Shown piece after piece: positions 12,851-64,000 of a stretch of DNA of 64,000 nucleotides. A model generated the notes under the pieces. That model saw only the letters and a program-made list of their open reading frames with translations, searched no databases and had not been told where the DNA came from. Within the stretch, counting starts at the first letter, position 1, and each line of letters begins with the position of its first letter. Where the stretch lies: NCBI RefSeq assembly GCF_056746865.1, contig NZ_CM163382.1; one strand, written 5' to 3'. The position numbers were made by a program, and so were the translations under genes.

Positions 12851-12861
12851 GCAATAAAAAA

Positions 12862-13008: not shown

Positions 13009-13370
13009 AACAACCTCTCTTATAATTATGGGTATTCTACGGAAACAATATACCGTGGTGAAGCTAATTTACTCGATTGCTGCGATGACTACCTCCGGGG
13101 GACAAACCTTATGTAAATACTATGGTCCTGCGGTGATGATTTGTATGTGATACACAGCAACATTTCGAGATATTCATACGGCATCTAATACTGATTTAAT
13201 TCTGGTTAAAATACAGACAGATAACAAGATGAATATTCTTAATGTTTACGTTAAAAATGTTTAATATTATTTAATAGTTGTTAATTTGAATACTTCGATA
13301 ATGTTATATTTCCTGATAATCATTTGCAGGCAAAATGTTTTCACTCTTAAATGAGTATTTATTCTCATAA

Positions 13371-13745
<375 letters not shown>

Positions 13746-13748
13746 TCT

Positions 13749-14876
13749 ATGTCGTGCCCGGTTATTGAGCTGACACAACAGCTTATTCGCCGCCCTTCCC
13801 TGAGTCCTGATGACGCAGGATGTCAGGCTTTGTTGATTGAACGTTTGCAGGCGATCGGTTTTACCGTTGAACGCATGGATTTTGCCGATACGCAGAATTT
13901 TTGGGCATGGCGTGGGCAAGGTGAAACGTTGGCCTTTGCCGGGCATACCGACGTGGTGCCGCCTGGCGACGCCGATCGTTGGATCAATCCGCCGTTTGAA
14001 CCCACCATTCGTGATGGCATGTTATTCGGGCGCGGTGCGGCAGATATGAAAGGCTCGCTGGCAGCGATGGTGGTAGCGGCAGAACGCTTTGTCGCACAAC
14101 ATCCCAACCATGCAGGTCGACTGGCATTTCTGATCACTTCTGATGAGGAAGCCAGTGCCCATAACGGTACGGTAAAAGTCGTCGAAGCGTTGATGGCACG
14201 TAATGAGCGTCTCGATTACTGCCTGGTTGGCGAACCGTCGAGTATCGAAGTGGTAGGTGATGTGGTGAAAAATGGTCGTCGCGGATCGTTAACCTGCAAC
14301 CTCACCATTCATGGCGTGCAGGGGCATGTTGCCTACCCACATCTGGCTGACAATCCGGTACATCGCGCAGCACCTTTCCTTAATGAATTAGTGGCTATTG
14401 AGTGGGATCAGGGCAATGAATTCTTCCCGGCGACCAGTATGCAGATTGCCAATATTCAGGCGGGAACGGGCAGTAACAACGTTATTCCGGGTGAACTGTT
14501 TGTGCAGTTTAACTTCCGCTTCAGCACCGAACTGACTGATGAGATGATCAAAGCGCAGGTGCTTGCCCTGCTTGAAAAACATCAACTGCGTTATACGGTG
14601 GAATGGTGGCTTTCCGGGCAGCCATTTTTGACCGCGCGCGGTAAACTGGTGGATGCGGTCGTTAACGCGGTTGAGCACTATAATGAAATTAAACCGCAGC
14701 TACTGACCACAGGCGGAACGTCCGACGGGCGCTTTATTGCTCGCATGGGGGCGCAGGTGGTGGAACTCGGGCCGGTCAATGCAACTATTCATAAAATTAA
14801 TGAATGTGTGAACGCTGCCGACCTGCAGCTACTTGCCCGTATGTATCAACGTATCATGGAACAGCTCGTCGCCTGA
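13749..14876 (+). CDS. dapE: succinyl-diaminopimelate desuccinylase
   Basis: 375-aa ORF; M20 peptidase family metal-binding motifs (HTDVVP, GAADMKG); length matches DapE. Confidence 0.95.
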
Positions 14877-14903
14877 TGAGTGGTTCTGCAAGAGGAAATA
14901 AGC

Positions 14904-15104
14904 ATGGACTGGCTGGCTAAATATTGGTGGATTCTGGTGATTGTCTTTTTGGTAGGCGTCCTGCTGAACGTGATTAAAGATCTCAAGCGCGTCGACCATA
15001 AGAAATTTCTCGCCAACAAGCCGGAGCTTCCCCCGCATCGTGATTTCAACGATAAGTGGGACGATGACGACGACTGGCCGAAAAAGGATCAACCGAAGAA
15101 GTGA
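14904..15104 (+). CDS. ypfN: UPF0370 small membrane protein YpfN
   Basis: ORF 14880-15104; start placed at ATG 14904 ([21 protein letters not shown]...), 66 aa; single TM helix and acidic C-terminus. Confidence 0.8.
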
Positions 15105-15110
15105 GCTGAG

Positions 15111-15175
15111 TGGCCGGATAAGGCGTTCACGCCACATCCGGCCATGATGCCTGAAACAGTCTTATCAGGCCTACC
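15111..15175. repeat. REP/BIME element (two palindromic units) between ypfN and ypfH
   Basis: tggccggataaggcgttcacgccacatccggcca plus gatgcctgaaacagtcttatcaggcctac match the E. coli REP consensus pattern. Confidence 0.7.
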
Positions 15176-15184
15176 CGGCTATTA

Positions 15185-15883
15185 TTACATCATTTCAATC
15201 ACATCATCATCGCCAGGCTTACCGCCACTTAGCGCTTCGTCGAAATAATGTTTCGGAATGGTATAACGCAAGTGATCCAGGGCAAATTGCATACTGCGAT
15301 TGTCGATCGCATGGCCTAAATCCTCCACGATATCCAGCGTCACGTCACCACCGGCACTGATTAACGCTTCCTGCGCCGCAACCGCATGCGCCAGATCGAT
15401 AACCGGATCTTCACCACCATGAATCAAGTGAATTGTCGTGGCTGTAGACGCGGTTTCCGGCAGGCTGGCATAGCGTCCGTTAAAGGCAATGACGCGCGAA
15501 GCAAGGCCCGGTTCGACTTTAATGCTCTCCAGCGCCATAATCGCGCCTTGAGAGAAACCGATGAGTGCCGTGGCGTTAGCCCCTACTCCGCTCTGTTTCT
15601 GCCAGTAGCGCACCGTTTCAATAAACGTCGGCATGATGGCATCCACACGTGCCTGGCGATTATCTTCCGTAATACCCTGCACCGAAAACCACTGACGCCC
15701 CGCCGGATTACCGCTCGGCTCCGCGCCACCGACACTCACCACCAGCGCATCAGGAAACAGCGGCGCAAACCAGCTACCTATTTCCCCCATTGCCACCGGG
15801 TTATCCCCGACACCGTGGAAAAGCAGTAACAACTGTTGTGCAGGTTTATCCGGGCTTTGAACAACAAAATGGTCATGTTTCAT
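15185..15883 (-). CDS. ypfH: esterase/carboxylesterase YpfH (alpha/beta hydrolase)
   Basis: ORF 15185-15907; start placed at ATG 15883 (MKHDHFVVQSPDKPAQQ...), 232 aa; GFSQG nucleophile elbow. Confidence 0.9.
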   Translation of the reverse strand: MKHDHFVVQSPDKPAQQLLLLFHGVGDNPVAMGEIGSWFAPLFPDALVVSVGGAEPSGNPAGRQWFSVQGITEDNRQARVDAIMPTFIETVRYWQKQSGVGANATALIGFSQGAIMALESIKVEPGLASRVIAFNGRYASLPETASTATTIHLIHGGEDPVIDLAHAVAAQEALISAGGDVTLDIVEDLGHAIDNRSMQFALDHLRYTIPKHYFDEALSGGKPGDDDVIEMM

Positions 15884-15956
15884 GGCGAACTCCTTAACTG
15901 ATGTCATTAATTTTACGCCGCTGACTCACAATGACCATGGGAGAAAATTGAAGGAG

Positions 15957-17972
15957 TCAGTGAAAAAATTGCCATTGCGTTATGCGATCGCGCAGACGCT
16001 CAGTGCGAACATCATCAAGTGCGAATAGCGCCTGCGCGGCCTCTTCCCGCTGGCGAACCAGTAACAGCTTACGGCCTGAAAGTTTAAGTGTGGTACATAA
16101 CTGCGCGTCACTGGCGTTTTTCTGTAAACGCCCACGCAGCGCCGGTAATGCCAGTTCGCTGGTTTGTAGCAGACGCAATAAGCAACCTAACGACGTTAAT
16201 AGCGGACGATGAGTGAAAGCAAAACCGGCCAGTTCAAGCCAGTCGTCGTCAGAAAGGACGGCATCGTTTAGTGGATCAACAGGAAGCATTTCGCCATTCC
16301 ACTGCGCGAGAGCTTGCGCATCGCGACGTAAACGGTAATGCTCACGTTCAGCCAGCTGTTTACCCGCATCACTCATCGGTAACAGCGCCATCGCCGTATA
16401 GCAACCGCTGCTGGCTTCACGATGATTACCCATTCGCACCAGCACAAAACCGCAGCGTTGCCAGAAACGCCATAACTCCTCGGTGTAACCAAAACTCACC
16501 GAAAGATAGTCGAGGTCATGCGTATATTGCAAAGCACCAACAATAAGCTGTCGCCCTGTGCCTTCCCGCTGACGAGCAGGATGAACTGCTATCCGGCTAA
16601 CCCGCCGTCCGCGCAATGTCGCCGCCAGTGGATTGCTGCCGTGCGCCGCCAGCGACTGGGCCACCAGATTACCCCGCGGGCGACGAAAACCCGCCCATAC
16701 CGCCTGACTGAGTTCTTGAGATAATCCGCCCTCATCCACCAGCCACAGCGCTCCGGCAATCTCGTTTTCGCCAGCCGCCTGTAAAAAATGTTGACCTGGT
16801 GCATCCATCATGCGGCGTAAATCCAGCGGCGAAGTCCGGTAGTGCGCGCCAGACAATAGCTGATATACCTTTAACGGCGTTTCTGGTTCGCTTCGCCATA
16901 ACGTCTGTTCAAAAGCAGAAATGACGATGTCACCTTGTGGTTCGTGAGTGAAGTTTTCGTCGTCAAAAACCAGTGCCTCGCTGACCATTTTTTCCAGCGG
17001 GCATCCCTGCGCCCAGCGGATCGGTTGTTGCAGTTCAAAACGGTGTAAATGTGGAAAGCGAGCGCAAAATTTCAGCAAAAAACCACGTCCGGTACCTTCG
17101 TAGCCCTGCACCGTAGTGGTTAACAACGTTCGAGGAAAACGCGATACCAGTTGATGCAACAACGGCGCAGGTATGGCTGCGGCTTCATCGACCACCAGCC
17201 AGTCGGCTTGCTCATCGCTGGCTAACAAGGCATCCGGCGCAATAAAGCGAAACTTCTCGCCCGCAAATTGTGCCAGTACATCCGTTGCCGCTTTTGCGGG
17301 CGCGGTGACAATCGCACTGCCCGCAATACGAGAAATGAGTTGCCCTGCCAACGCCGATTTACCGCGCCCACGCGCAGCCGTTACCGCTGCCACGCCCGGC
17401 GGCATGGTCAGTAACTGCTGTAAGAGTTGCTGTTGTTCTGGTTGTGGTGTGCCGGTCGCGGGGTGCCAGTCAGTACGGGGAGCAAAATGCACCAACGTGA
17501 ACGGCTGGTTTTGCCGCCAGAGGATGGCGTCGTTATTCGCCGTAAGTACACGTTTGAGATGCTGGACAAAATGCGGCGTCGCAATAGGGTCAGGGCAATC
17601 ACTCCAGCGCAGCGAGTCGGCATCAGGTTGGTTTTCCCACTCTTCCCATACAGGGAGTAACAACACCAGCCAGCTTCCCGCTTTCAACGTTCCGCTAAGT
17701 GCTGCAAAGGCAGCGGCATCAAAGCCGTGGCGGGCGTCGAATACCGCATGCCGGAATTCGCGCCCAAGTAAAGTTTGTAGCGCCGAGGGAAAACAGTGGT
17801 TTTCAGCGACTGGCTGCGGCGAAATCCACAGCCAGTCGCCAGGTAAGGCATCACGCAACTTAAGCGCATGATCAAAACACCAACCCTCTTCCCCGCTCAA
17901 CACCAGCAAGCGGCGGATCCCTTCACGTTTCATTTGCGCTGTTAATGTGTGAAGCGCAGTCAGTTCAGCCAT
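15957..17972 (-). CDS. tmcA: tRNA(Met) cytidine acetyltransferase TmcA
   Basis: 671-aa ORF; Walker A (GRGKSALAG) helicase-like domain plus C-terminal GNAT acetyltransferase; length matches TmcA. Confidence 0.9.
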   Translation of the reverse strand: MAELTALHTLTAQMKREGIRRLLVLSGEEGWCFDHALKLRDALPGDWLWISPQPVAENHCFPSALQTLLGREFRHAVFDARHGFDAAAFAALSGTLKAGSWLVLLLPVWEEWENQPDADSLRWSDCPDPIATPHFVQHLKRVLTANNDAILWRQNQPFTLVHFAPRTDWHPATGTPQPEQQQLLQQLLTMPPGVAAVTAARGRGKSALAGQLISRIAGSAIVTAPAKAATDVLAQFAGEKFRFIAPDALLASDEQADWLVVDEAAAIPAPLLHQLVSRFPRTLLTTTVQGYEGTGRGFLLKFCARFPHLHRFELQQPIRWAQGCPLEKMVSEALVFDDENFTHEPQGDIVISAFEQTLWRSEPETPLKVYQLLSGAHYRTSPLDLRRMMDAPGQHFLQAAGENEIAGALWLVDEGGLSQELSQAVWAGFRRPRGNLVAQSLAAHGSNPLAATLRGRRVSRIAVHPARQREGTGRQLIVGALQYTHDLDYLSVSFGYTEELWRFWQRCGFVLVRMGNHREASSGCYTAMALLPMSDAGKQLAEREHYRLRRDAQALAQWNGEMLPVDPLNDAVLSDDDWLELAGFAFTHRPLLTSLGCLLRLLQTSELALPALRGRLQKNASDAQLCTTLKLSGRKLLLVRQREEAAQALFALDDVRTERLRDRITQWQFFH

Positions 17973-17986
17973 CCCTGCCCCGGAAG

Positions 17987-18850
17987 TTAAATGCTTTTAC
18001 CAAAAGTATTGCATTGTGCCGGATCACCGCTGTCGAAACCACGTTTAAACCAGCTGTAGCGTTGCTGAGAAGTGCCATGAGTGAAACTGTCTGGTACTAC
18101 TCGCCCCTGACTTTGCTGTTGTAAACGGTCATCGCCGATGGCCTGCGCCGCGTTCAGCGCCTCTTCCAGATCGCCGGTTTCCAGAACGCCTTGCTGCTGC
18201 ATACTATGCCCCCAGACACCAGCAAAACAGTCGGCCTGGAGTTCCATACGCACAGATAAGCGGTTCACTTCCGCCTGCGTCGCGTTTTGTTGCAGTTGAC
18301 GAACTTTCGGCTCGATGCCTAACAGTTTCTGCACATGATGACCGACTTCATGGGCGATAACGTACCCCTGGGCAAAATCGCCATCCGCGCCAAGTTTGTC
18401 TTTCATTTCATCATAGAAGGAGAGATCGATATAAACCGTGCCATCCGCCGGGCAATAGAACGGCCCCATAATGGACTGGCCCGCCCCGCAGCCGGTGCGC
18501 GTCATTCCACGGTACATGACCAGCTTCGGTTGCTGATAGGTTTTACCCATCTTCTCGAATTGCTGTCCCCAGGTGTCTTCCGTGGTTGCCAGAATCACCG
18601 AAGTGAATTTTGCGGCTTCGTCTTCATTAGGACTAATTGACCGTGTTGATTGCTGTTGGGAAACCGGCTGTCCGGTCATCAACCCGGTTAAATCAACGCC
18701 ATAGTAGCCTGCAACCAGCACGACTATCAGTAAAATCAGCCCGCCTTTACCGCTTGGCAGGCGAAAACCTGGACCGCCCATTGACGGACCACCAGAGCTG
18801 TTGCGCCTGTCTTCAACATTGTCACTTTCACGTCGCCCTTGCCAACGCAT
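17987..18850 (-). CDS. ypfJ: putative zinc metalloprotease YpfJ
   Basis: 287-aa ORF with HExxH motif ([11 protein letters not shown]); length matches YpfJ. Confidence 0.9.
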
Positions 18851-19017
18851 AGATACCTCAACAATATATTCATTATAGAAATGATCGTAGGTGGTTCAGA
18901 GGAAGATTACCACAGGAAAGCGGGATGAAATGGCGGAGGAATGAGCGTTCAATGCACATCTTCCGAGAGCGGTTGTCTTGCCGTGCCAGCTGCACGGCAA
19001 GATGATGAACAGAAAAA

Positions 19018-19731
19018 TCAGTCCAGCTGTACACCCAGGCGGCGGGCGACGGCTTCATAGGCTTCGATCAGGCCACCGAGGCTCTGGCGGAAACGGTCTT
19101 TGTCCATTTTCTCCAGCGTTTCTTTGTCCCACAGGCGGCTGCCGTCCGGGGAGAACTCATCGCCCAGTACAACTTCACCTTTGTACAGGCCAAACTCCAG
19201 TTTAAAGTCGACCAAAATCAGACCAGCATCATCGAACAGTTTTTTCAGCACGTCGTTCGCTTTGTAGGTCAGCTCTTTCATACGCGCCAGGTTCTCTTTA
19301 CTTACCCAGCCAAAGGTTTCGCAGTAAGATTCGTTGACCATCGGATCGTGCATGGCGTCGTTTTTCAGGAACAGATCGAACAGCGGCGGGTTCAGCTCAA
19401 TACCTTCTTCGATTCCAAGTCGTTTCACCAGAGAGCCAGCAGCACGGTTACGCACGACACACTCAACCGGCACCATATCCAGCTTTTTCACCAGACATTC
19501 GGTATCGGAGAGCAGACGCTCCATTTGAGTCGGGATACCCGCTTCAGCCAGTTTGCTCATAATGAAGTAGTTGAACTTGTTGTTCACCATACCTTTGCGA
19601 TCAAACTGCTCAATGCGCGCGCCATCCCCTGCTGACGTATCATTGCGGAATTCGAGCACCAACAGGTCCGGGTTTTCCGTGCTGTATACGGTTTTCGCTT
19701 TACCACGATACAACTCAGCTTGCTTTTGCAT
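19018..19731 (-). CDS. purC: phosphoribosylaminoimidazole-succinocarboxamide synthase
   Basis: ORF 19018-19740; start placed at ATG 19731 ([28 protein letters not shown]...), 237 aa. Confidence 0.95.
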
Positions 19732-53040: not shown

Positions 53041-53065
53041 CCTCCGGCATAGCCGGAGGTTTTTC
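53041..53065 (+). terminator. hairpin plus T-run downstream of yfgI (either the yfgI terminator or the detached right-end hairpin of IS200)
   Basis: CCTCCGG-catag-CCGGAGG followed by TTTTTC, 47 bp after the yfgI stop and 9 bp before IS2. Ambiguity explained in findings. Confidence 0.5.
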
Positions 53066-53068
53066 AAA

Positions 53069-53073
53069 TGCGC
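53069..53073. repeat. IS2 target-site duplication, left copy (TGCGC)
   Basis: 5-bp TGCGC immediately left of the IS2 left inverted repeat; identical pentamer immediately right of IS2. Confidence 0.8.
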
Positions 53074-53164
53074 TAGACTGGCCCCCTGAATCTCCAGACA
53101 ACCAATATCACTTAAATAAGTGATAGTCTTAATACTAGTTTTTAGACTAGTCATTGGAGAGCAG

Positions 53165-53530
53165 ATGATTGATGTCTTAGGACCGGAGAAACGCAGACGG
53201 CGTACTACACAGGAAAAGATCGCTATTGTTCAGCAGAGTTTTGAACCGGGAATGACGGTCTCCCTTGTTGCCCGGCAACACGGTGTGGCAGCCAGCCAGT
53301 TATTTCTCTGGCGCAAGCAATACCAGGAGGGAAGTCTTACTGCTGTGGCCGCAGGAGAGCAGGTCGTTCCTGCCTCTGAACTTGCTGCTGCCATGAAGCA
53401 GATTAAAGAACTCCAGCGCCTGCTCGGCAAAAAAACGATGGAAAATGAACTCCTTAAAGAAGCCGTTGAATACGGGCGTGCAAAAAAGTGGATAGCGCAC
53501 GCGCCCTTATTGCCCGGGGATGGGGAGTAA
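53165..53530 (+). CDS. insC: IS2 transposase OrfA (InsC; HTH DNA-binding component)
   Basis: ORF 53120-53530; start placed at ATG 53165 ([24 protein letters not shown]...), 121 aa. Confidence 0.9.
53482..53488 (+). other. IS2 programmed -1 ribosomal frameshift slippery site (A6G) in the insC/insD overlap
   Basis: AAAAAAG heptamer inside the 43-nt overlap of insC and insD; IS3-family OrfAB fusions are made by -1 frameshifting at such sites. Confidence 0.6.
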
Positions 53531-54393
53531 GCTTAGTCAGCCGTTGTCTCCGGGTGTCGCGTGCGCAGTTGCACGTCATTCTCAGACGAACCGATGACTG
53601 GAAAGATGGTCGCCGCAGCCGTCACTCAGATGATACGGATGTGCTTCTCCGTATACACCATGTTATCGGAGAGCTGCCCACGTATGGTTATCGTCGGGTA
53701 TGGGCGCTGCTTCGCAGACAGGCCGAACTTGATGGTATGCCTGCGATCAATGCCAAACGTGTTTACCGGATCATGCGCCAGAATGCGCTGTTGCTTGAGC
53801 GAAAAACCGCTGTACCGCCATCGAAACGGGCACATACTGGCAAAGTGGCCGTGAAAGAAAGCAATCAACGATGGTGCTCTGACGGGTTCGAGTTCCGCTG
53901 TGATAACGGAGAAAAACTGCGAGTCACGTTCGCGCTGGACTGCTGTGACCGTGAGGCACTGCACTGGGCAGTCACTACGGGCGGCTTCGACAGTGAAACA
54001 GTACAGGACGTAATGCTGGGAGCGGTGGAACGCCGCTTCGGCAACGAGCTTCCGGCGTCTCCAGTAGAGTGGCTGACGGATAATGGTTCATGCTACCGGG
54101 CTAATGAAACACGGCAGTTTGCCCGGATGTTGGGGCTTGAACCGAAGAACACGGCGGTGCGGAGTCCGGAGAGTAACGGCATAGCAGAGAGCTTCGTGAA
54201 AACGATAAAGCGTGACTACATCAGTATCATGCCTAAACCAGACGGGTTAACGGCAGCAAAGAACCTTGCAGAGGCGTTCGAGCATTATAACGAATGGCAT
54301 CCGCATAGTGCACTGGGTTATCGCTCGCCACGGGAATATCTACGGCAGCGGGCCAGTAATGGGTTAAGTGATAACAGGTGTCTGGAAATATAG
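53488..54393 (+). CDS. insD: IS2 transposase OrfB (InsD; DDE integrase-like catalytic component)
   Basis: 301-aa ORF ([23 protein letters not shown]...); rve-type integrase core. Confidence 0.9.
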
Positions 54394-54404
54394 GGGCAAA
54401 TCCA

Positions 54405-54409
54405 TGCGC
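54405..54409. repeat. IS2 target-site duplication, right copy (TGCGC)
   Basis: TGCGC immediately right of the IS2 right end. Confidence 0.8.
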
Positions 54410-54476
54410 CTATAAGGCTCTCTTACCAGCCGCGCCCTAACAGGCGCACACGATCTGACATTTGCATCCAACTTCG

Positions 54477-54935
54477 TTACTTACGGCCCGTAAACGGGCT
54501 GCCCGGATAGGGAATCGATAACTGCTCTCCCATTTTATCCTCTTCAAGCTGGTGCTTTATGTAATCCTGTATCTTCGCCGTGTTCTTACCCACTGTATCG
54601 ACGTAGTACCCTCTGCACCAGAACTCCCTGTTCCTGTATTTGAATTTCAAATCACCAAACTGCTCGTAAAGCATCAGACTGCTTTTCCCTTTCAGATATC
54701 CCATAAACCCGGATACGCTCATTTTAGGCGGGATCTCCACAAGCATATGGATATGATCTGCACAGCATTCAGCTTCCAGAATCCGTACGCTTTTCCACTC
54801 ACACAGCTTTCTCAAAATACTGCCTATTGCTCTACGCTTCTCTCTGTAGAACACCTGTCTTCGGTATTTTGGCGCAAAAACTATGTGATATTTACAGTTC
54901 CATCGGGTGTGCGCTAAGCTCTTTTCGTTCCCCAT
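54477..54935 (-). CDS. tnpA: IS200 transposase TnpA (Y1/HuH single-strand transposase)
   Basis: ORF 54477-54986; start placed at ATG 54935 preceded by GGGGG (MGNEKSLAHTRWNCKYHIVFAPKYRRQVFY...), 152 aa; HuH motif (HIHMLV) and catalytic Tyr region. Confidence 0.9.
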   Translation of the reverse strand: MGNEKSLAHTRWNCKYHIVFAPKYRRQVFYREKRRAIGSILRKLCEWKSVRILEAECCADHIHMLVEIPPKMSVSGFMGYLKGKSSLMLYEQFGDLKFKYRNREFWCRGYYVDTVGKNTAKIQDYIKHQLEEDKMGEQLSIPYPGSPFTGRK

Positions 54936-54940
54936 TGGGA

Positions 54941-55010
54941 CCCCCTTTTGATTTCTTGTTTGACACTTGCAGTTGCCAGACCGCAAGGTGTTTTAACAAA
55001 TCAAAAGGGG
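54941..55010 (-). promoter_or_regulatory. IS200 5'-UTR stem-loop that sequesters the tnpA ribosome-binding site
   Basis: CCCCTTTTGATTT (54941-54953) and AAATCAAAAGGGG (54998-55010) are exact reverse complements; the arm next to the ATG contains the Shine-Dalgarno sequence. Confidence 0.6.
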
Positions 55011-55045
55011 TTTTAATAACTGGCTCAAAGCTGAAAGCTTTCCGG

Positions 55046-55068
55046 AACCCCCAGCCTAGCTGGGGGTT
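55046..55068. other. IS200 left-end hairpin (palindrome near the element end)
   Basis: aaCCCCCAGC-cta-GCTGGGGGtt, 23 nt, about 10 bp inside the inferred IS200 left boundary. Confidence 0.5.
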
Positions 55069-55074
55069 TTCTGT

Positions 55075-55108
55075 GCACAAAAAACCCTCTGTAGTAACAG
55101 AGGGTTTT
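55075..55108 (-). terminator. rho-independent terminator of the prophage lysis cassette (minus strand)
   Basis: Minus strand reads AAAACCCTCTG-ttacta-CAGAGGGTTTTTTGTG: 11-bp stem plus T6, 127 bp downstream of the Rz stop and abutting the IS200 end. Confidence 0.6.
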
Positions 55109-55234
55109 GTTCATTCATAGTGCAGGGTCAAATCATTCCCACTCAATTGTTTACGACAATCATAACCAATTGAGTGATAACATTTTTCCAAAACTTAATT
55201 TTTCTAGTACCGTTTTATATACCGTCACCGGAAA

Positions 55235-55732
55235 TCAGTGCCACGATTTTTGCTTCTTCAGTGAATCGTATTGCTGTTCGCAGGATTCTCCTGCAATCCG
55301 ATACTTTTCAGCCTCAGCTGCTGTTGCGTTGTAAACTCGATTGCTTTCTTCAAGCATGTCGGCGAGCACACCGATGACCTTGCTGGCTGGCGTGCCAGTG
55401 GGGAAAGATCCGGTATAGTGTTCGGCGAGTCGCTTGGTTTTGTCAAGCTCGGCGCGCAGGCTGTCAGCAGCGGCATTAGCATGCTCAGCATCAACACGCG
55501 CCACATCGATACGGGATTGTGCTTCACGTTCAATTTGTGTTTTCTCCTGATCACGTTGTGACCTGGCCTTATCATCAGCCTGTTTCTGATCTTCCTGTGC
55601 CTGCGCATACCCGGCATCGTACTGGCGACTGCCGTGTATATTCCAGGCAACCACTCCGACGGTAAACAGAGCAGCAAGAATCACCACGATAAGCAGTTGT
55701 TTCCAATATGCTTTTACGAATGCCCAGATCAT
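55235..55732 (-). CDS. prophage i-spanin (Rz-like inner-membrane spanin)
   Basis: 165-aa ORF with one N-terminal TM helix then a charged coiled-coil body; start overlaps the endolysin stop (ATGA); last gene of the lysis cassette. Confidence 0.7.
55258..55506 (-). CDS. prophage o-spanin (Rz1-like outer-membrane lipoprotein) embedded in the +1 frame of the Rz-like gene
   Basis: ORF 55258-55677 in an alternate frame inside Rz; from ATG 55506 it encodes [17 protein letters not shown]... with lipobox LTA-C followed by a proline-rich short mature region; start codon choice tentative. Confidence 0.6.
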   Translation of the reverse strand: MWRVLMLSMLMPLLTACAPSLTKPSDSPNTIPDLSPLARQPARSSVCSPTCLKKAIEFTTQQQLRLKSIGLQENPANSNTIH

Positions 55733-56358
55733 ATAGCCAGCACCTTACTGGCAGTGACGTACCGCGCGCGCCGGTCGTCGATGCCGTTCCGGCCACCATT
55801 GATAATCAGAGTTACACGTGCAATATCACCGGTATACTTCATGCATCCTTTGCTGGCAAAGAACCACGCCGCGCTACGAGCCGCGTATTCGTCCTGCGCC
55901 AGCAGTTCAGGATTCTCCAGCAAGTCCACTTTCAAGCCGTTTCCGCAGTCACGATAGTTATTCAAACCGGTAATCTGGATAAGTCCGCGACCTCGGTAAT
56001 TCCAGCCATCGCCGGGGGCATTGTTCCCCATGCGTTTGCTGTACACCAGATTGGCAATCGCTCTCTGGCGCTCAGGTGGCAATGGTGGTTCACCAGCACG
56101 GCGCCCCAATGCGTTGGCCTGTCCCTGAGTGAGACGCCCAGCCCGAACGAAGTTAGCCAGTCCGCTGACGCTGTAGTTGAAATTTTCCTGCAACCGGGTG
56201 AAACCTCCAGACTCATGCCCGACCTGAGCAATAAACATTGCCTGATCTTCTGGTTTGCTGATACCAAACTCTTTCATCGCAGAAGTTATATGCGAGAACC
56301 AGCGTGCGGCAAGCGCCTCGCTAATACCAGCAGCTCGCTGGAATTGTTTAATCTCCAT
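55729..56358 (-). CDS. prophage endolysin, glycoside hydrolase family 19 (chitinase-like lysozyme)
   Basis: ORF 55729-56523; start placed at ATG 56358 preceded by GAGGT ([21 protein letters not shown]...), 209 aa; GH19/COG3179-like motifs ([21 protein letters not shown]). Confidence 0.8.
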
Positions 56359-56656
56359 GTTTAGACCTCGATACTTTGAAAATTTGAACGACGTTACCGC
56401 GCGTTTTAATAACCGCAGCGAGCATGACAGCGTTGATAATGACCTCAGATAAATCCACAGCCATTGGCGTGCGGAACCAGATTGCATAGGCAACACGAAC
56501 CGGAATACTGGCCGCAGCAACAATCAGGAAATAAGCAAGCCACCCCCCCCATCTTCGATGTTGAGATCCGTTACGCCGGAATGTGACAACACGAATTGCT
56601 ATGCCAGTACAAATAACTGCATTGGTGATAAGTAAAAACAGGTCATGCGTTACCAT
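56348..56656 (-). CDS. small membrane protein in lysis cassette (putative holin or antiholin, 2-3 TM)
   Basis: 102-aa hydrophobic ORF directly upstream of the endolysin gene and overlapping it by 11 nt; function assigned by position only. Confidence 0.5.
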
Positions 56657-57059
56657 CGTCTTTTCTCCCCGGAATTAACTCGCGTGGATTATCGGAACGG
56701 TGATAGAGCCAGATACCAATTCGCACTGCGACAATTGCTGATACGAATGCGCCAGCAGAGAAAACAATCCCTTTCTCGAACGAGTCCTGCGTGATGGTAG
56801 GGATCAGGCTGGCTATGCCGATAAGAATTGATGCTGCTGGTTTGTAAAAAAGAAGGCCGCAGAGAAAGCTAAGCATCGACAAAAGCACACGACGACGAAT
56901 GGGATACTCTACCGCAGAGGTAACAAAAATTACCGCTCCAGCCAAAGACCCCAAAGCAACCTCGGGAGGAACTCCTGCTATCACCGCCGCCAGAGAAGTC
57001 ATGCTAAGCCACTGATTCAAAGAATCACTGGTTGTCTGAATTGACATGATAAACACCAT
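56643..57059 (-). CDS. putative holin (multi-TM small membrane protein), first gene of lysis cassette
   Basis: 138-aa ORF with 3-4 predicted TM segments and a basic C-terminal tail; two Met codons within the first five (M1, M5); overlaps the next gene by 14 nt. Confidence 0.55.
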   Translation of the reverse strand: MVFIMSIQTTSDSLNQWLSMTSLAAVIAGVPPEVALGSLAGAVIFVTSAVEYPIRRRVLLSMLSFLCGLLFYKPAASILIGIASLIPTITQDSFEKGIVFSAGAFVSAIVAVRIGIWLYHRSDNPRELIPGRKDDGNA

Positions 57060-57187
57060 TTATTTCACATAAACAACTCCATTAAATAAATGTTTATCAT
57101 ACACAATAAACCATTTATGGATAATTATTACTCGTGATTTTTATGATTATTCGCGCATTTTTCTATCATTTTTATCCAGTGTGCCGT

Positions 57188-57211
57188 AAAACCACGTCCT
57201 TAAGGGCGTGG
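57188..57211 (-). terminator. hairpin terminator downstream of the tail fiber gene
   Basis: Minus strand: CCACGCCC-ttaa-GGACGTGG followed by TTTTAC; about 160 bp after the tail fiber stop. Confidence 0.5.
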
Positions 57212-57236
57212 ATGATGTCAACTGATGATGTCAACT
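57211..57236. repeat. perfect tandem direct repeat 2 x 13 bp (GATGATGTCAACT) in the tail fiber - holin intergenic region
   Basis: gatgatgtcaact gatgatgtcaact read directly from the sequence at 57211-57223 and 57224-57236. Confidence 0.7.
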
Positions 57237-57372
57237 ATTGGCTGGCTTTGACTGATATTGCAGGAGTTGTTGGATAAGATTTAAGTGACCGTCAAAGCGG
57301 TCACTTATGAGAAAAGGAAGTTAGACAAAGTGGCAAACAGGCTCATTGATGGCTACGTCAATGACCAAGGTT

Positions 57373-59775
57373 TCATTCAGACTCCAGCAACTCTATCCTG
57401 GCGAGAAGCGCTTCATATTTATCAAGTAATCGAGAGTAGTTCCTTCGTTGCATTGCAGCTTCCATTACCAACATTTCTTCATAACGAATGCCGTAACGGG
57501 AACCAGCTTCTATAGCAGGAGTGATTACCTCACCGGTTTCATCATCTATGACGGCAGGAGTGTCACCCCATTCATCATAACAGATGAAACCAAAGCGATG
57601 AGCATCAAGACCATGCCTTTCGAATGCCTCCACGTACCGTTGAGCAATGGCGCCGAAGTGCCAGCGGGCGCCATCAGCGCCTTTTTCTTTAATCCTATCC
57701 AGATACTTATACTGGACTAGCTGAACCTCTTCTGCGGCATCGAGAATGGCATCAGTCATTAGTAATGGGTCTGATTTGCAAATGGCATCTGACGTGATAG
57801 TGAACGCCGTTTGAGTGAATCCACCAGACCACGGAAACGAACTTGCCCCGCAAGGATAGGTATTTGCCGTGGCAGGACGTATTTGCTTCACAGCAAATAC
57901 GTGCGACGTCATTTCTGCTGTACCAGAACCCGTAACGCCGGGATCTCCACCAGAGACACGTAAAATCCCTGTAGGGACAGATGAGTCCGTCGATGAATAA
58001 AAGCGAATCTGCTGTGCTTCTGCAACACCAGGGTTACATAGCTTAATAGCTTTAGTTGTGAACGCATTAGTATCCGTATCAAATATCCAGTATCTGTTGT
58101 TTGAACCACCATCTATAATAACGTTCGCAAGAGATACACCAACTCGCTGTATATTAGAAATATTGTTAGCATTAGTACCAGCAGTTAACTGAATACCCCT
58201 TGTGCAATTATTTACACGCGAGTTACTAATAGTATTATTAGCAGCAAATCTAGTGCCAGCGGTATTTCCTGTCAGGAGAGTATGCGTAGTGTCCTTACTG
58301 AAGCCTGTCAATAACACCTCATTATTAGTGAACGTACCGTACTGAGCACATGATTTAAAACCGATATAAGGTGTGGTTAAATCCTCAGGAATACCATTCC
58401 ATACCATACAAAAGTTATCTGTAATTACACTATGGTTTCCTCCATTGTTAGACAAATCACCCAACTCTACAGCACTTATGGAAGTATTGAAGTGGTTATT
58501 TGTAACCTGGAACAGGTTACCAACATTGTTTTCAGAAACAACTCCGCGGCGACCAGCAATGATATGGTTACCGAAAACCACAACACCTTCGGTATCGTCA
58601 TGCGCGTACATGAAGGTGTCGAAGTTCTGATAAGAACCATTGACAATATTGATATTCTTTGTTGAGTACAGGTCGAATATTTTACCCATTCGATATGCTG
58701 GTACAGATGTTCCTCCACCAGTTACGTTAACGCCGTCAAATACACACTGACCAGCTCTGCTTAGCTTAAAGACAGTATCAAAAGAGGATTGAGTACCAGC
58801 ATCATTTGACACATCCAGGTCACGAACGATAAGTTGTCGGGCGTATTCGATTCCCCCTGTCCCTAAAAACGTAAGCGCAGTACCCTGAAGTTGCCCGGTA
58901 GCTTTTATCGTGAAATTACGTAAACCAACAGGTTTTCTTACTACAGTCGTACCCGAGTTATCAATGATAAGACCATATCCAGCAGCAAATTTTATTCCGC
59001 ATGTAGCCATGCTTACGCCAAAAACATCACTATAAAAATTAGTTACTGAGATGTCGCTTGAGCAGTTGTATATACGACGAAGCTTAATATCTAGACCAGT
59101 TTCCTTTGCTGCAGTAAAGGCATTGATCAGTGCCAAGGTATCATCAGCATCACCTCCAACAGCGCCAAAATCCTCAGGAGTGAGTGATTCCCTCATTTTA
59201 TCCTGGAACGTTCGGTATACTGCCCCATAACCATACTGAATAAACCAACCAAAACCACCAACAACCCCGGCGATTGCAGCATCGACATAATTACGCATTG
59301 AGCGATTATTTACAGCGTCCTGCTCAAGTGATGGATCTGCAAGGTTAGAAATTCTGTTTTGCTTTGCATCGTAATATTTTGCAAGCAAAGATGGTTTCAT
59401 CAATGCACGTCTGAACCACCCAAAACATTGCTGGATCAGCATCGTCAGGTAGTCAAAGGCATCTTCATGCACTTCGGGAAAAAACTTTCCCTGATTGCGA
59501 AGGTCTGTCTCCTGTACTACATCAAGCACACGATCTATCGTAATTCGCCATCCAGTAGCAAGCGGAGACGGAAGAACCACAGAACCGCCACTATAAGTGC
59601 CCGCCCCAGTTACCGTATAACCGGTATCCAGAACCAATTCTGTTACGTTCCCGTTCAGGTCAGACACCTGAACAACCAGGTCTGATTTTCTGAAAATTCG
59701 AAAAGTATACGGAAACGATGTCGTAACGCCGTTACCTGTGTATTCGTTGTGGTCAACTTCGGTTGAGACCGTCAT
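57373..59775 (-). CDS. prophage tail fiber/tailspike (N-terminal virion-attachment domain, central beta-helix-like domain, C-terminal intramolecular chaperone domain)
   Basis: 800-aa ORF preceded by GGAG; N-terminus has the tail-fiber motif ...NRISNLADPSLEQDAVN... (compare T7 gp17 RIVNLANAVDDRDAV); middle is Gly/Asn/Thr-rich repeat typical of beta-helix tailspikes; C-terminal ~130 aa resemble S74-type chaperone domains. Confidence 0.8.
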   Translation of the reverse strand: MTVSTEVDHNEYTGNGVTTSFPYTFRIFRKSDLVVQVSDLNGNVTELVLDTGYTVTGAGTYSGGSVVLPSPLATGWRITIDRVLDVVQETDLRNQGKFFPEVHEDAFDYLTMLIQQCFGWFRRALMKPSLLAKYYDAKQNRISNLADPSLEQDAVNNRSMRNYVDAAIAGVVGGFGWFIQYGYGAVYRTFQDKMRESLTPEDFGAVGGDADDTLALINAFTAAKETGLDIKLRRIYNCSSDISVTNFYSDVFGVSMATCGIKFAAGYGLIIDNSGTTVVRKPVGLRNFTIKATGQLQGTALTFLGTGGIEYARQLIVRDLDVSNDAGTQSSFDTVFKLSRAGQCVFDGVNVTGGGTSVPAYRMGKIFDLYSTKNINIVNGSYQNFDTFMYAHDDTEGVVVFGNHIIAGRRGVVSENNVGNLFQVTNNHFNTSISAVELGDLSNNGGNHSVITDNFCMVWNGIPEDLTTPYIGFKSCAQYGTFTNNEVLLTGFSKDTTHTLLTGNTAGTRFAANNTISNSRVNNCTRGIQLTAGTNANNISNIQRVGVSLANVIIDGGSNNRYWIFDTDTNAFTTKAIKLCNPGVAEAQQIRFYSSTDSSVPTGILRVSGGDPGVTGSGTAEMTSHVFAVKQIRPATANTYPCGASSFPWSGGFTQTAFTITSDAICKSDPLLMTDAILDAAEEVQLVQYKYLDRIKEKGADGARWHFGAIAQRYVEAFERHGLDAHRFGFICYDEWGDTPAVIDDETGEVITPAIEAGSRYGIRYEEMLVMEAAMQRRNYSRLLDKYEALLARIELLESE

Positions 59776-59860
59776 GTTAAATCTCCAGATAGTCGCAGCA
59801 CCCGTTGCGCCGCATATCTGGTTATTCTATTACCTGAAAAACCACATATGGATAGAAAGG

Positions 59861-59876
59861 CTGTAAATACGAATAG
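59861..59876. promoter_or_regulatory. weaker second LexA-like box (CTGT-N8-ATAG)
   Basis: CTGTaaatacgaATAG, one mismatch in the distal ACAG half-site, about 70 bp upstream of the strong box. Confidence 0.3.
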
Positions 59877-59931
59877 ATATTACCTTTCAGGTAATTTGCA
59901 AAACGTGCTGGATAGCAAACAAATTATTTGC

Positions 59932-59951
59932 TACTGTATAAATATACAGTT
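59932..59951 (+). promoter_or_regulatory. LexA (SOS) box immediately upstream of the small plus-strand ORF
   Basis: tACTGTATAAATATACAGtt matches the LexA consensus TACTGTATATATATACAGTA at 18/20 with CTGT-N8-ACAG intact; ends 6 bp before ATG 59957. Confidence 0.7.
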
Positions 59952-59956
59952 ATTGC

Positions 59957-60229
59957 ATGGAGAAGATTAAGATGCAGCAGTATCACTATCCACTGGAAGA
60001 CGGATTTACCGAAAGGATTCACACGCCGGGAGGCGTCAGGTCACTGGTGGAGGGATCGCACTTGATGAAATTACTCCGGGATCTCGATAAGGATGGATTT
60101 AATGTCGATGGCCCACTTGCCGAACTGACTGCACTGATTAACTACGTCACCAGCTCACAGATGTCTATGCGGGATCTGCAAACACATCTCGACTATTGTG
60201 CCGAACAATTACGAAAACAAACCCGGTAA
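59957..60229 (+). CDS. small SOS-box-associated prophage protein of unknown function (90 aa, or 85 aa from ATG 59972 which has the better GGAGA Shine-Dalgarno)
   Basis: ORF in track; soluble, charged, no TM segment; LexA box overlaps its promoter region; convergent with the 98-aa membrane protein gene. Confidence 0.55.
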   Translation: MEKIKMQQYHYPLEDGFTERIHTPGGVRSLVEGSHLMKLLRDLDKDGFNVDGPLAELTALINYVTSSQMSMRDLQTHLDYCAEQLRKQTR

Positions 60230-60235
60230 ATTTAA

Positions 60236-60273
60236 AGGCCGCAAGAGCGGCCTGTGACATGTCACGCTCTTTT
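60236..60273. terminator. bidirectional terminator between the convergent small genes
   Basis: GGCCGC-aaga-GCGGCC hairpin then GTGACATGTCAC palindrome and CTCTTTTTC; T-rich on both strands (tttaaattt on the minus side). Confidence 0.55.
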
Positions 60274-60558
60274 TCTGAATGATAGCCATTCGAAAAATGA
60301 TGACATTCCACCGCAGACAATAGCAAAGATGATCCCACCAAAGAAGAGAAGGCCAGCCTGCCACCACTCCCACCGCCATACATCCACAGCGCCAACCATA
60401 CCAACAATCGCTCCAACAAATGGAATATAGCTCACGATGAAAGCAATGGGGGCTGCAATTATCCAGTGCAATCCCCACCATGATTCAAGCCCAGCCATAA
60501 TTGCTGCCAACTGAAAAAGACCAACGACGATATAAACAATGAATCCTATAGCTTGCAT
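60262..60558 (-). CDS. small 3-TM inner-membrane protein of unknown function (moron; candidate superinfection-exclusion or conversion protein)
   Basis: 98-aa ORF with AGGTGA Shine-Dalgarno; three hydrophobic helices, Trp-rich loop (VDVWRWEWWQAG), basic C-terminus FRKRA. Confidence 0.6.
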   Translation of the reverse strand: MQAIGFIVYIVVGLFQLAAIMAGLESWWGLHWIIAAPIAFIVSYIPFVGAIVGMVGAVDVWRWEWWQAGLLFFGGIIFAIVCGGMSSFFEWLSFRKRA

Positions 60559-60570
60559 GTAGTCACCTAT

Positions 60571-60744
60571 TTACCCAGTAAAAATCAGAGGCCTCCCCTC
60601 AATAAGGCTTGCAACAAGAACTATTCCCTGCACAACAAAGATGAACCAGCAAATAGCTTGAGTCTGAGGGTTAAGAAAATATTTGTAGCGGTCAATAAAT
60701 AACAACCCACCAGAAATTATCACACTCAAAATAATTAAAAACAC
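60571..60744 (-). CDS. possible 57-aa two-TM membrane peptide (GTG start), translationally coupled to the upstream virion protein gene
   Basis: Not in ORF track (under 60 aa). GTG 60744 is preceded by AAGGAAG overlapping the 824-aa gene stop; product (M)FLIILSVIISGGLLFIDRYKYFLNPQTQAICWFIFVVQGIVLVASLIEGRPLIFTG; same frame as the upstream gene. Confidence 0.35.
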   Translation of the reverse strand: MFLIILSVIISGGLLFIDRYKYFLNPQTQAICWFIFVVQGIVLVASLIEGRPLIFTG

Positions 60745-60753
60745 AACACTTCC

Positions 60754-63228
60754 TTATTGCGGAGTGACATCCTGAGGTCGCCACCAGTATGTCTGGTTAA
60801 ACTCTTTCTTCGAACGTTGCTCCATTTTACGCAAATAGCCTGGTGAAAAATACTCCTGCATCTGGTTAAAGATCATATGATCGAGAGCCGCCTTTAAGTA
60901 CCAGAGATTCGCACCTGGCATCAAACCTTTCCCCAGCTTCACCAGATCACCACCAGTCTGCTCACTCTTCCCTTCCACAGCATTTAACGGTATGCCCTGA
61001 GCAATCTTCACTACGTCATCAACCAGACCAGCTACCGGGCCAAGCATCGACGCCAGCGCGCCGCTTCCGTACCTAGTGTGATCTGACAATAAAAAGTCAC
61101 CGTAAAGGCCAAGACCACCACCTTTCAGTAGAGCACCAAGCCAAAATTTAGCAGCATCTTCTCCTGTCATCTCGCGAGGATTACGACCAGACGCAAGGTC
61201 GTTAAGTTGCTGCGACAAAGCGCCAAGAATGGTCGTACTGGCAATAAACGTCGCAATATATGCCGCACGCCCACCAGCAGACGGCATACCCATAGCGCGT
61301 GACCAGTGACGCATAACCACCGAGATAGGGAACGATTTAAACAGGAAAACACTTCTCGTTAATTCACCTTTCCATGTTCCACGCTGAATACCAGAACCGG
61401 TTATCAGTTGCTCACGTGCTCCCGGTGTAATAACAGCCATATCAACTTCTTCAGTTACGGCACCGAGCAGTTTACGCATTGCCTCAAATTTCACGCGTTC
61501 AGGCTCACCAAGATGTTTAACTGCTGAATCAGGGATACGCATAATGCTTTCCGGTGTCAGCATCGTATTATTGCCGTTCCCCCAGTCCTCCTGTTGCGCC
61601 AGCTTCCATACGCTCCAGTCTGTGTCAGTAATCCCTTTGCTTTTCAGGATACGAAAATCAGAATCATCGAGGCTACGAAGGTCTGGTGTCCGTGACACTA
61701 CTTCTCCCAGGCTTCCCATCATGGTTACGCCATAGGCGCGCTTGTGCGCATCTGACCATGCTGTAAGCCCACTGGCACGCATTACCGCCGTTGCAGCCCA
61801 ACGAGACACAGACGGCCCCATATTATCCATCGCCCAGCGGTTAACGCTGCCAAGTAGAGATTCCATCGCCAGACCAGCGCGGCGCGCCCGCGCAAGTTCT
61901 GTACGGTTCGTTGGGTCCATAGCTTCAAGCTGGTTGCGGAATAACTGGTTCATTGGAAGGTTGGTAACCTTCGCAGACAGATACATGGTTCCAAGATCAG
62001 AGAACGATGACAGCAACGCGGATCCGAGTCTGCTGGCAACCAGCCAGTTGCGGATATTGTCAGACCATCGCGCGATGTGCGGATTCGCTACAGGCTGTGT
62101 CTTTCCGGAAATAAAATTGTACAGATTCTCTGTGTTGTTCGCCAGCCGCTCGACTTTACCGGTTTTACTCGGGTTAGCTGTTGCCGTTTCTGCCTTCACC
62201 TGATCAAGAAGAGAGCGGAAAACATGATCGGGGTTTGGGCCATATGTTTCCACCAGTGCAATATCTTTACTGATACCTTCAAGGTGACCGACCATGATTT
62301 CCCATAGAGAGCGATCGCCATAAAGTTGCTGATATTGCAGATAGGAATCTGCATCTTTGAAATGTATCTGTCGTGATGCATTACCACGGTTAGCACGTGC
62401 GCCGGAAATTCGCATTCCGGTATCAGTAAGCTTATTCAGCCCACCAGTAGCGATCGTGTTATAAGCCTCTCCAAGAAATGCAGACAACTCGGCATCGTTC
62501 ATCAGTTGTCCATCGGCTCGGGTATAATATTTGCGATCCAGCTTACCTATAACATCGCTAACCCATTTATCTTTTGATACCGCCCCAACCTTTTCCATAG
62601 AATGATGTTGAGGGATCCCCCAGTTTTCGAGATAGCCAATGTCCCCACCAGCATCATTAAACCGGCGGCGCAGCAGCTCTGTAACTTCTCTCCACGCCTT
62701 AGCACCTTTTCTTGCTTTAGCATTGCCAGTATTTTGCCCCCGCATTTCATATACCAGGTCACGTACGCCCGCTTCATCTTCAAACAGACCAAAAAAGCGA
62801 GGATCAACTGCTTCGAATGCCTCCTGCAATTGACTCAATGCATAATCACGGGTGGCTTTTGTTCTGGATTCAACAGAGAGGAAATTCGATTTACCGTCTG
62901 CATTAAAAGCAATAGTACGGTTAAGAGCGCCAAGTTTCCCATCAGCCCCTTGATAGCTATTGATAAATTTATCCAATCTCTGACGTGCGGCTATAGTGAG
63001 GGCCACACGACGTTTCTTTAATGCCGCTTCTCGCTGTAATTCTTCAGATGCCAATTGTGCTGCACGATACAACCGTTCTGATTCGGAAAGTTGTCGCCAC
63101 GACATCGGGTCATCACGAGCAATGGAGCGCATATTTCGATAAATGCGGTCTTCAATGTTCTGTATTTCTCGCGCCGTTAACGTGCGCTGCGCCGCCTGCT
63201 GGACCGCTTGTATACATTCCTGTCTCAT
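60754..63228 (-). CDS. large prophage virion protein, function unknown (putative internal virion / DNA-ejection protein by position)
   Basis: 824-aa ORF; N-terminal coiled-coil, Gly-rich C-terminal region; directly upstream of the tail fiber module; no catalytic motif recognised. Confidence 0.6.
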   Translation of the reverse strand: MRQECIQAVQQAAQRTLTAREIQNIEDRIYRNMRSIARDDPMSWRQLSESERLYRAAQLASEELQREAALKKRRVALTIAARQRLDKFINSYQGADGKLGALNRTIAFNADGKSNFLSVESRTKATRDYALSQLQEAFEAVDPRFFGLFEDEAGVRDLVYEMRGQNTGNAKARKGAKAWREVTELLRRRFNDAGGDIGYLENWGIPQHHSMEKVGAVSKDKWVSDVIGKLDRKYYTRADGQLMNDAELSAFLGEAYNTIATGGLNKLTDTGMRISGARANRGNASRQIHFKDADSYLQYQQLYGDRSLWEIMVGHLEGISKDIALVETYGPNPDHVFRSLLDQVKAETATANPSKTGKVERLANNTENLYNFISGKTQPVANPHIARWSDNIRNWLVASRLGSALLSSFSDLGTMYLSAKVTNLPMNQLFRNQLEAMDPTNRTELARARRAGLAMESLLGSVNRWAMDNMGPSVSRWAATAVMRASGLTAWSDAHKRAYGVTMMGSLGEVVSRTPDLRSLDDSDFRILKSKGITDTDWSVWKLAQQEDWGNGNNTMLTPESIMRIPDSAVKHLGEPERVKFEAMRKLLGAVTEEVDMAVITPGAREQLITGSGIQRGTWKGELTRSVFLFKSFPISVVMRHWSRAMGMPSAGGRAAYIATFIASTTILGALSQQLNDLASGRNPREMTGEDAAKFWLGALLKGGGLGLYGDFLLSDHTRYGSGALASMLGPVAGLVDDVVKIAQGIPLNAVEGKSEQTGGDLVKLGKGLMPGANLWYLKAALDHMIFNQMQEYFSPGYLRKMEQRSKKEFNQTYWWRPQDVTPQ

Positions 63229-63233
63229 TTAAT

Positions 63234-64000
63234 TTAACCTCTCAAGAAACACGCCACAGCAACATCAAACAGGCTGGAATCCTGTATTGCCTGCTCACTT
63301 TCCCTGTTCGCTTCATCCAGTACTTCACGCGCACTGCGCGATTGTGGATTACCATCATCATCCAGCACGGTGATTATCATGTCAGGTGATTCAAGCAGCG
63401 AGTCTTCAGCTATGCGCAGATCAATATCTCCTGCCTGATCTGACATCATTTTTTGTTCTGCCTGTTGCAATATTTTATCAGGCTCAAAAGGAGCTACTTC
63501 GTCTGGCGTCCTGACCTCTGCTGTTTTATAGAATGAAACAGCCTGAGCATTAAGTTCACTTTCTGCCTGCTGTCTCCGAGCCAGTTCTGCTCGAGCTTCA
63601 AAAAACTGACCGCCAGGCTCGTGCGGTGCCAACGCGTTACGGGAAAATTCCAGGCGTTCTTGTGCCTGCCGGATTCGTTGATCAATATCGCGAAGTCTGG
63701 CCTGTTTATCTGATCGAGCACGAGACAAAGCTTTACCGCTACCGGTTGGCTCTTCTGCAAGAATTTGTGCACGCTGTTCAGTGAGATTTTCAATAATTCG
63801 TTGGCTATTAGCGATTTCAGACTGGTAAACCTGTCTATCTCCACGCGGCAAAAGCTGCGCGGCCTGTTCTTCAAGCAACCGATTTTCTATAGCGCGCGCC
63901 GTTACTCCATCATCTACAGATGACAGAGCCTCATTAACTGCCTGAGACAGCAGACTCTTGCGCCCAGGAATTTCACTGAAAGATGCAGACTCAACAATGC
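63234..64000 (-). CDS. prophage coiled-coil virion/ejection-associated protein, C-terminal part (5' end beyond window)
   Basis: ORF track gives 63234-63878, but the same frame stays open to the window end (...SEIPGRKSLLSQAVNEALSSVDDGVTARAIENRLLEEQAAQ...); Gln/Glu/Arg-rich coiled-coil. Confidence 0.55.
   Translation of the reverse strand, partial: IVESASFSEIPGRKSLLSQAVNEALSSVDDGVTARAIENRLLEEQAAQLLPRGDRQVYQSEIANSQRIIENLTEQRAQILAEEPTGSGKALSRARSDKQARLRDIDQRIRQAQERLEFSRNALAPHEPGGQFFEARAELARRQQAESELNAQAVSFYKTAEVRTPDEVAPFEPDKILQQAEQKMMSDQAGDIDLRIAEDSLLESPDMIITVLDDDGNPQSRSAREVLDEANRESEQAIQDSSLFDVAVACFLRG

Follow-up and report, generated by a model that had tools for sequence, protein, structure and literature searches.

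A probable tailspike of an epsilon15/phiV10-like Escherichia coli prophage joins a rare beta-helix receptor-binding domain to a predicted self-removing S74 chaperone

The 64,000-nucleotide stretch of contig NZ_CM163382.1 (assembly GCF_056746865.1) analyzed here, which we refer to as the window, carries an open reading frame (ORF) of 800 amino acids (aa) at 57373..59775, and this locus raises the question of what part of a phage particle its product forms, how that product would mature, and what it would recognize on the host surface. An earlier note, drawn from the sequence alone, had described a modular tail fiber or tailspike. Our analysis indicates that the protein is very probably the single tailspike, or receptor-binding protein, of an epsilon15/phiV10-like podoviral E. 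coli prophage, composed of a virion anchor, a beta-helix and a Peptidase_S74 domain predicted to remove itself, and that it represents a rare new subtype within a well-described class. The ORF is intact, occupies exactly the interval given in the earlier note and lies on the minus strand, which that note left unstated; translation of 57373..59775 on the plus strand is riddled with stops and gives no open frame. Because residues 1-5 (MTVST) do not vary among the 14 anchor homologues compared, the start codon can be regarded as fixed. NCBI already lists the exact 800-aa protein under the name 'tail fiber domain-containing protein [Escherichia coli]'; at 90% identity it falls into a cluster of 74 sequences, and the gene is 99.7% and 99.0% identical in nucleotides (nt) to genes annotated in this way in E. 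coli PF9285 and A_5, respectively. The features of the spike gene are as follows:

57373..59775, minus strand: complete tailspike gene from the ORF list, 800 codons plus stop with an ATG start, encoding a precursor of 87.3 kDa (computed mass)
59783..59786, minus strand: Shine-Dalgarno sequence GGAG, read directly from the sequence, 7 nt 5' of the spike ATG
59185..59775, minus strand: N-terminal virion anchor, aa 1-197, with a predicted beta-sandwich (about aa 1-90) and coiled-coil helices (about aa 104-194)
59308..59355, minus strand: motif RISNLADPSLEQDAVN, aa 141-156, a segment resembling T7 gp17 RRIVNLANAVDDRDAV
57895..59184, minus strand: receptor-binding domain, aa 198-627, a predicted right-handed parallel beta-helix with the cap motif LTPEDFGAVGGDADDT at its start
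57793..57894, minus strand: pre-cleavage stalk, aa 628-661, homologous to the segments before the cleavage site of other S74 proteins
57376..57792, minus strand: Peptidase_S74 intramolecular chaperone/auto-processing domain, aa 662-800, which ends the protein (139 aa, 15.9 kDa if released)
57775..57792, minus strand: predicted catalytic dyad and cleavage site, S662-D-A-I-C-K667, with the cut expected between T661 and S662

Both homology and genome position identify the anchor as one of the epsilon15/phiV10 (Uetakevirus) tailspike type. Several Uetakevirus phages carry nucleotides 1-582 of the spike gene at 94-98.6% identity (98% for ZX5 and phiv142-3). Among 5,426 complete E. coli genomes, approximately 490 also match this segment, there joined to bodies of other kinds, such as K1 endosialidase and GH28-like domains. 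At the protein level, the anchor shares 66% identity with epsilon15-type spikes, PHROG tail families match aa 1-227 with support up to E = 1e-167, and domains D1-D2 of Dpo31 (PDB 28lx/8ck1) match aa 1-182 (E = 1e-31). The anchor of the phiV10 receptor-binding protein has been placed in its first 205 aa (Pas et al. 2023; PMC10408124), and in Dpo31, D1 is a beta-sandwich and D2 a trimeric coiled coil (PMC13317679). Helices at aa 104-194 in our AlphaFold2 (AF2) model, though predicted at low confidence by the local distance difference test score (pLDDT), agree with the Dpo31-type layout of beta-sandwich and coiled coil. The earlier note had likened this N-terminal attachment domain to that of T7 gp17, and here the claim divides: the domain and its motif at aa 141-156 are real, but the likeness to T7 is sub-threshold and the anchor is specifically of the epsilon15/phiV10 type. 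T7 gp17 carries RRIVNLANAVDDRDA at the position aligned to RISNLADPSLEQDAVN, and PF03906, the profile of the gp17 N-domain, aligns its positions 123-149 with spike aa 135-161 at 13 bits for the whole protein and 18.5 bits for the isolated domain, below the cut-off of 25.2. Each of the 14 anchor homologues matches the same profile weakly (E <= 1; best E = 2.2e-6), and hhalign against gp17 residues 1-200 is collinear over 130 columns with 27% identity, E = 0.017 and a probability of 2.6%. These alignments suggest a probable distant shared ancestry between the two anchors, not membership in one family.

The central part of the protein is rich in Gly, Asn and Thr, as the earlier note described, with 10.9% G, 9.1% N and 10.9% T over aa 191-640, compared with 5.3% N in the N-terminal part and 0.6% N in the C-terminal part. 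When a profile of the beta-helix domain built from our alignment A1 was searched against 1.84 billion representative proteins, only 62 clusters were recovered; remote profile matches included PF12708 in 30 of 59, NosD in 16 and Beta_helix in 10. Since pLDDT in the full-length monomer AF2 model was below 50 for the anchor and for the stalk and chaperone, a model of the domain was used, and Foldseek on the full-length model agreed with a right-handed parallel beta-helix. Structure prediction, the check that the earlier note had suggested for its central beta-helix, together with the remote profile matches, thus confirms this as the predicted fold. The AlgE4 mannuronan C5-epimerase A-module, the coliphage K5A lyase and the Dettilon tailspike are pectate-lyase-like right-handed beta-helices that share 13-16% identity with the spike domain, but their catalytic motifs are not recognizable in it, showing that the resemblance is one of fold and not of chemistry. 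The only polar residues kept out to the most remote homologues are E396, H428 and H448, which are candidate active-site residues on the basis of this conservation.

The beta-helix is followed by a stalk and a C-terminal domain with several homologues of known structure. The stalk resembles the pre-cleavage segments of PDB entry 9vvr, endoNF (3gw6) and AS12 gp42 (6eu4), as well as the C-terminal end of the mature K5 lyase (2x3h residues 510-542), and is probably an intertwined trimeric segment; its pLDDT is below 50 in both monomer models. PF13884 (Peptidase_S74) matches aa 662-723 with E = 2e-9, its score of 38 bits exceeding the cut-off of 22, and the domain is also matched by the chaperone domains of 9vvr (E = 1e-53 to 5e-55), phi29 gp12 (3gud; E = 2e-21 to 2e-22), AS12 gp42 (E = 1e-19), the Kp7 fiber (7y5s; E = 2e-18), endoNF (E = 5e-15 to 1e-15) and T5 pb1 (4uw8; E = 6e-10 to 6e-11). 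We found no paper describing 9vvr, the nearest solved chaperone homologue. S662 aligns with position 911 of endoNF 3gw6, which is Ala because the S911A form was crystallized, and K667 aligns with K916, preserving the S-x4-K spacing, and TSDxxxK is invariant in every homologue that bears an S74 domain. The residue aligned with S662 is the first one in 3gud, the cleaved fragment of phi29 gp12, and mature K5 lyase terminates at the position aligned with the cleavage site. These sequence comparisons confirm the C-terminal domain as a Peptidase_S74 intramolecular chaperone with its Ser662/Lys667 dyad in register, much as the earlier note had anticipated for the last 130 or so residues; the predicted fragment is 139 aa. 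By analogy with endoNF, gp12, pb1 and Dpo31, we infer that the spike processes itself, in which case cutting before S662 would yield products of 71.4 and 15.9 kDa.

The modules of this spike have evidently been reassorted between phage groups. The beta-helix and chaperone together (aa 198-800) recur at 87-93% aa identity behind P22 Head_binding (PF09008) or Tail_spike_N (PF18668) anchors. One such spike, P0001, shares 94.9% nt identity with our gene over gene nt 699-2348 and is found in true P22-like prophages with gp7/gp20/gp16 ejection proteins, an Arc/Mnt/Ant region and an integrase. Similarity to ZX5 stops at spike gene nt 620 and likeness to P0001 starts at nt 699, so that the conserved cap motif of the beta-helix (…GAVYRTFQDKMRES-LTPEDFGA…) lies between the exchange junctions. 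Exchange of anchors and receptor-binding domains between Uetakevirus and Lederbergvirus has been described before (Pas et al. 2023; PMC10408124), and, judged by these alignments, the spike is an example of this known swapping. P22-like (Lederbergvirus) spikes such as P0001 and those of the WP_137444271 type therefore have the same beta-helix, stalk and S74 domain, but their anchor is the P22 head-binding domain and they sit in a P22-type virion and immI setting.

Comparison with other characterized spikes shows a complementary pattern. Spikes of Uetakevirus, including epsilon15 gp20, the phiV10 receptor-binding protein and that of vB_EcoP_ZX5, share with ours the anchor, the prophage backbone and the place just upstream of the holin-endolysin-Rz genes, whereas their receptor-binding domains are unrelated: those of ZX5-type and K1-prophage spikes are endosialidase or GH28-like, and epsilon15 has a beta-helix of its own. 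The reverse holds for endoNF (K1F), phi29 gp12 and T5 pb1, whose C-terminal domain is homologous with the Ser/Lys dyad in register, but whose passenger is a beta-propeller sialidase or a fiber shaft; in our spike the passenger is a single-chain right-handed beta-helix and processing is predicted. The layout as a whole is the same in Dpo31 of the marine Cobetia podovirus Carin-1, with a D1 beta-sandwich, a D2 coiled coil, a beta-helix body and a chaperone domain D4, the release of which its authors inferred from an 18-kDa band in denaturing gel electrophoresis (SDS-PAGE) and absent crystal density (PMC13317679). No sequence similarity was detected between Dpo31 and our receptor-binding domain.

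The surroundings of the gene place the spike within a prophage. It is flanked by virion-protein genes and a lysis cassette (55235-57059), in a gene order shared with phage vB_EcoP_ZX5 and with the PF9285 and A_5 prophages, and the host element is an epsilon15/phiV10-like (Uetakevirus-type) podoviral prophage of E. coli. Its neighbors are as follows:

56643-57059, minus strand: holin 1, downstream of the spike
56348-56656, minus strand: holin 2, downstream of the spike
55729-56358, minus strand: GH19 endolysin, downstream of the spike
55235-55732, minus strand: Rz-like spanin, downstream of the spike
60754-63228, minus strand: virion structural (internal) protein of 824 aa, phrog_684, upstream of the spike
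59957/59972-60229, plus strand: small divergent gene of 85-90 aa, matching phrog_450 (function not known)
53488-54393, plus strand: IS2-like orfB, within an insertion at 53045-55078
54477-54986, minus strand: IS200-type TnpA, within the same insertion

Positions 55079-60223 are collinear with the end of the PF9285 prophage, and no blastn match at E <= 1e-20 was found between 60223-64000, the region upstream of the spike, and that prophage (locus positions 1-19553). The window prophage also lacks the moron block of PF9285, which consists of an antirepressor fragment, two BRO-N genes and a YafO toxin gene; here, only two small membrane-protein ORFs, at 60262-60558 and 60571-60744, come after the gene for the 824-aa virion protein. 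Since this upstream region differs and the block is absent, the spike and lysis end has been swapped between different epsilon15-like backbones. The PF9285 and window prophages both adjoin yfgI, and relative to PF9285 the window carries an insertion of approximately 2 kb (53045-55078) at the junction of prophage and chromosome beside this gene. The A_5 prophage, which is of the same type, lies at another site, beside a truncated autotransporter gene near pdxI/ydbD (A_5 locus 16642-18351).

Two noncoding intervals border the spike gene. Between the stop codon of the spike and holin 1 is a gap of 313 nt (57060-57372), the minus strand of which yielded no terminator-like site, and the spike is not followed by any O-antigen-modification (seroconversion) gene. 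In some Uetakevirus and Lederbergvirus genomes, a seroconversion gene does lie behind the spike. On the other side, 181 nt lie between the start of the spike gene and the divergent gene, and this region contains a near-consensus LexA/SOS box, CTGTATAAATATACAG, palindromic at 59934-59949. The small divergent gene has a weak C-terminal match to the anti-repressor family phrog_1760 (E = 5.5e-7) and is kept beside the spike in PF9285, A_5, ZX5 and TL-2011b. Judging from these sequence features, its product may be a small antirepressor under LexA control, through which prophages of this type would undergo SOS induction.

In the mechanism that we favor, the 87-kDa precursor would trimerize, with the S74 domain (aa 662-800) acting as an intramolecular chaperone that would nucleate folding of the stalk and beta-helix and then remove itself through the Ser662/Lys667 dyad by cutting T661/S662. 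The 71-kDa mature spike would remain, its anchor (aa 1-197) would plug into the tail, and its beta-helix (aa 198-627) would bind and probably cleave a host surface polysaccharide, thereby bringing the virion to the outer membrane. As to which polysaccharide this would be, the earlier note's reserve about receptor specificity is upheld. In a tblastn search, the receptor-binding domain had no match among 50,697 phage genomes, leaving it with no characterized relative, and the spike gene with its beta-helix subtype occurs in only two of the 5,426 complete E. coli genomes, PF9285 and A_5. PF9285 has an O-antigen cluster with O107/O117-type wzx/wzy (its genome paper does not state a serotype), and that of A_5 is of the O17/O44/O73/O77/O106 type; A_5 is not among the 20 genomes with O107/O117 wzy. 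As the two lysogens carry different O-antigen clusters, the receptor is not deducible from its hosts, and we discarded lysogen serotype as a guide to it. With two lysogens, this discordance neither names the receptor nor disproves an O-antigen.

Several results weigh against the reading of this protein as a depolymerizing tailspike with a self-removing chaperone. There is no direct Pfam or NCBIfam beta-helix match (PF12708/PF13229/NosD) for the spike at E <= 1, which makes its link to PF12708 transitive only, and aa 1-195 and 628-670 are modeled with low confidence in the monomer models. The closest structural neighbors are a mix of an epimerase, lyases, hydrolases and a non-enzymatic adhesin, no known catalytic motif was matched in the beta-helix, and no catalytic residues could be assigned. 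The two complete-genome lysogens are discordant in their O-antigen clusters despite having identical or nearly identical receptor-binding domains. In addition, five homologues (P0032 and P0034-P0037) keep the beta-helix at 55-68% identity yet have, instead of S74, an unrelated tail of approximately 55 aa, '…GSPEG…YVKESGTGNTGWVAK' ('…(F/L)YVKESG.TGNTGWVAK'), which had no match in PDB or Pfam; the chaperone is thus not strictly required by the beta-helix fold. One beta-helix is here naturally paired with two alternative C-terminal caps.

The mixed structural neighbors leave some room for a beta-helix that acts as a binding-only adhesin for a surface glycan or protein, without glycan cleavage and with S74 still serving as its chaperone. 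We give this little credence, as most of the near neighbors are enzymes and the conserved Glu and two His on consecutive rungs would be compatible with an active site. Characterized podoviral beta-helix tailspikes (P22, HK620, Sf6, epsilon15, phiV10 and Dpo31) are moreover nearly all depolymerases or deacetylases, which counts against an adhesin that only binds. Somewhat less doubtful, though still unlikely in our judgment, is a receptor that is not the O-antigen but another surface polysaccharide present across O groups, such as a capsule or K antigen, group 4 capsule, colanic acid or enterobacterial common antigen. Such a receptor would fit the observation that the receptor-binding domain of A_5 (aa 198-644) is 100% identical to that of the window and that of PF9285 differs at 4 residues, yet their O types differ, and in many E. 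coli prophages the same anchor bears endosialidases for the K1 capsule. However, only two lysogens could be typed, recombination moves O-antigen loci as well as prophages and can thereby create a mismatch after lysogenization, and receptor-binding protein subtypes in Uetakevirus and Lederbergvirus usually follow O serogroup in published surveys (PMC10408124). That the beta-helix is an uncharacterized depolymerase subtype whose target is another glycan common to unrelated O groups, not the serotype-defining O-antigen, seems improbable to us, but such a target would account for finding the same domain in O17/O77-group and O107/O117 lysogens.

The remaining alternatives concern the gene and its class. 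A relic in a defective prophage, yielding no functional spike, might be suspected from the IS2-like and IS200-like insertion sequence (IS) elements (53045-55078) at the prophage-chromosome junction and from the missing BRO/YafO block. The IS elements nevertheless lie outside the phage genes, the neighboring lysis and virion genes are intact, and the spike itself retains a full-length ORF with its start, Shine-Dalgarno sequence, dyad and all family-invariant residues, making decay of this gene very unlikely. A T7-type tail fiber in place of an epsilon15-type tailspike could draw on the PF03906 match over the motif and the collinear hhalign with gp17, but the former scores under the Pfam cut-off and the latter has negligible hhalign probability. 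With a genome setting that is epsilon15-like and not T7-like, and a body predicted as a beta-helix instead of the coiled-coil shaft and tip domain of the gp17 type, genome context and fold effectively refute a fiber of this kind. The epsilon15/phiV10-type tailspike thus stays our strongly preferred reading.

In conclusion, the layout of this spike is ordinary: the combination of anchor, beta-helix and self-cleaving S74 domain, and the swapping of receptor-binding domains between Uetakevirus and P22-like prophages, have already been documented (PMC10408124). That its lysogens are discordant in O-antigen cluster cautions against reading specificity off one prophage host, and the occurrence of the same beta-helix with and without S74 offers a natural test of the need for the chaperone in folding. 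Finally, the spike adds a rare receptor-binding subtype to the catalogue available for phage host-range prediction and for phage and tailocin engineering.

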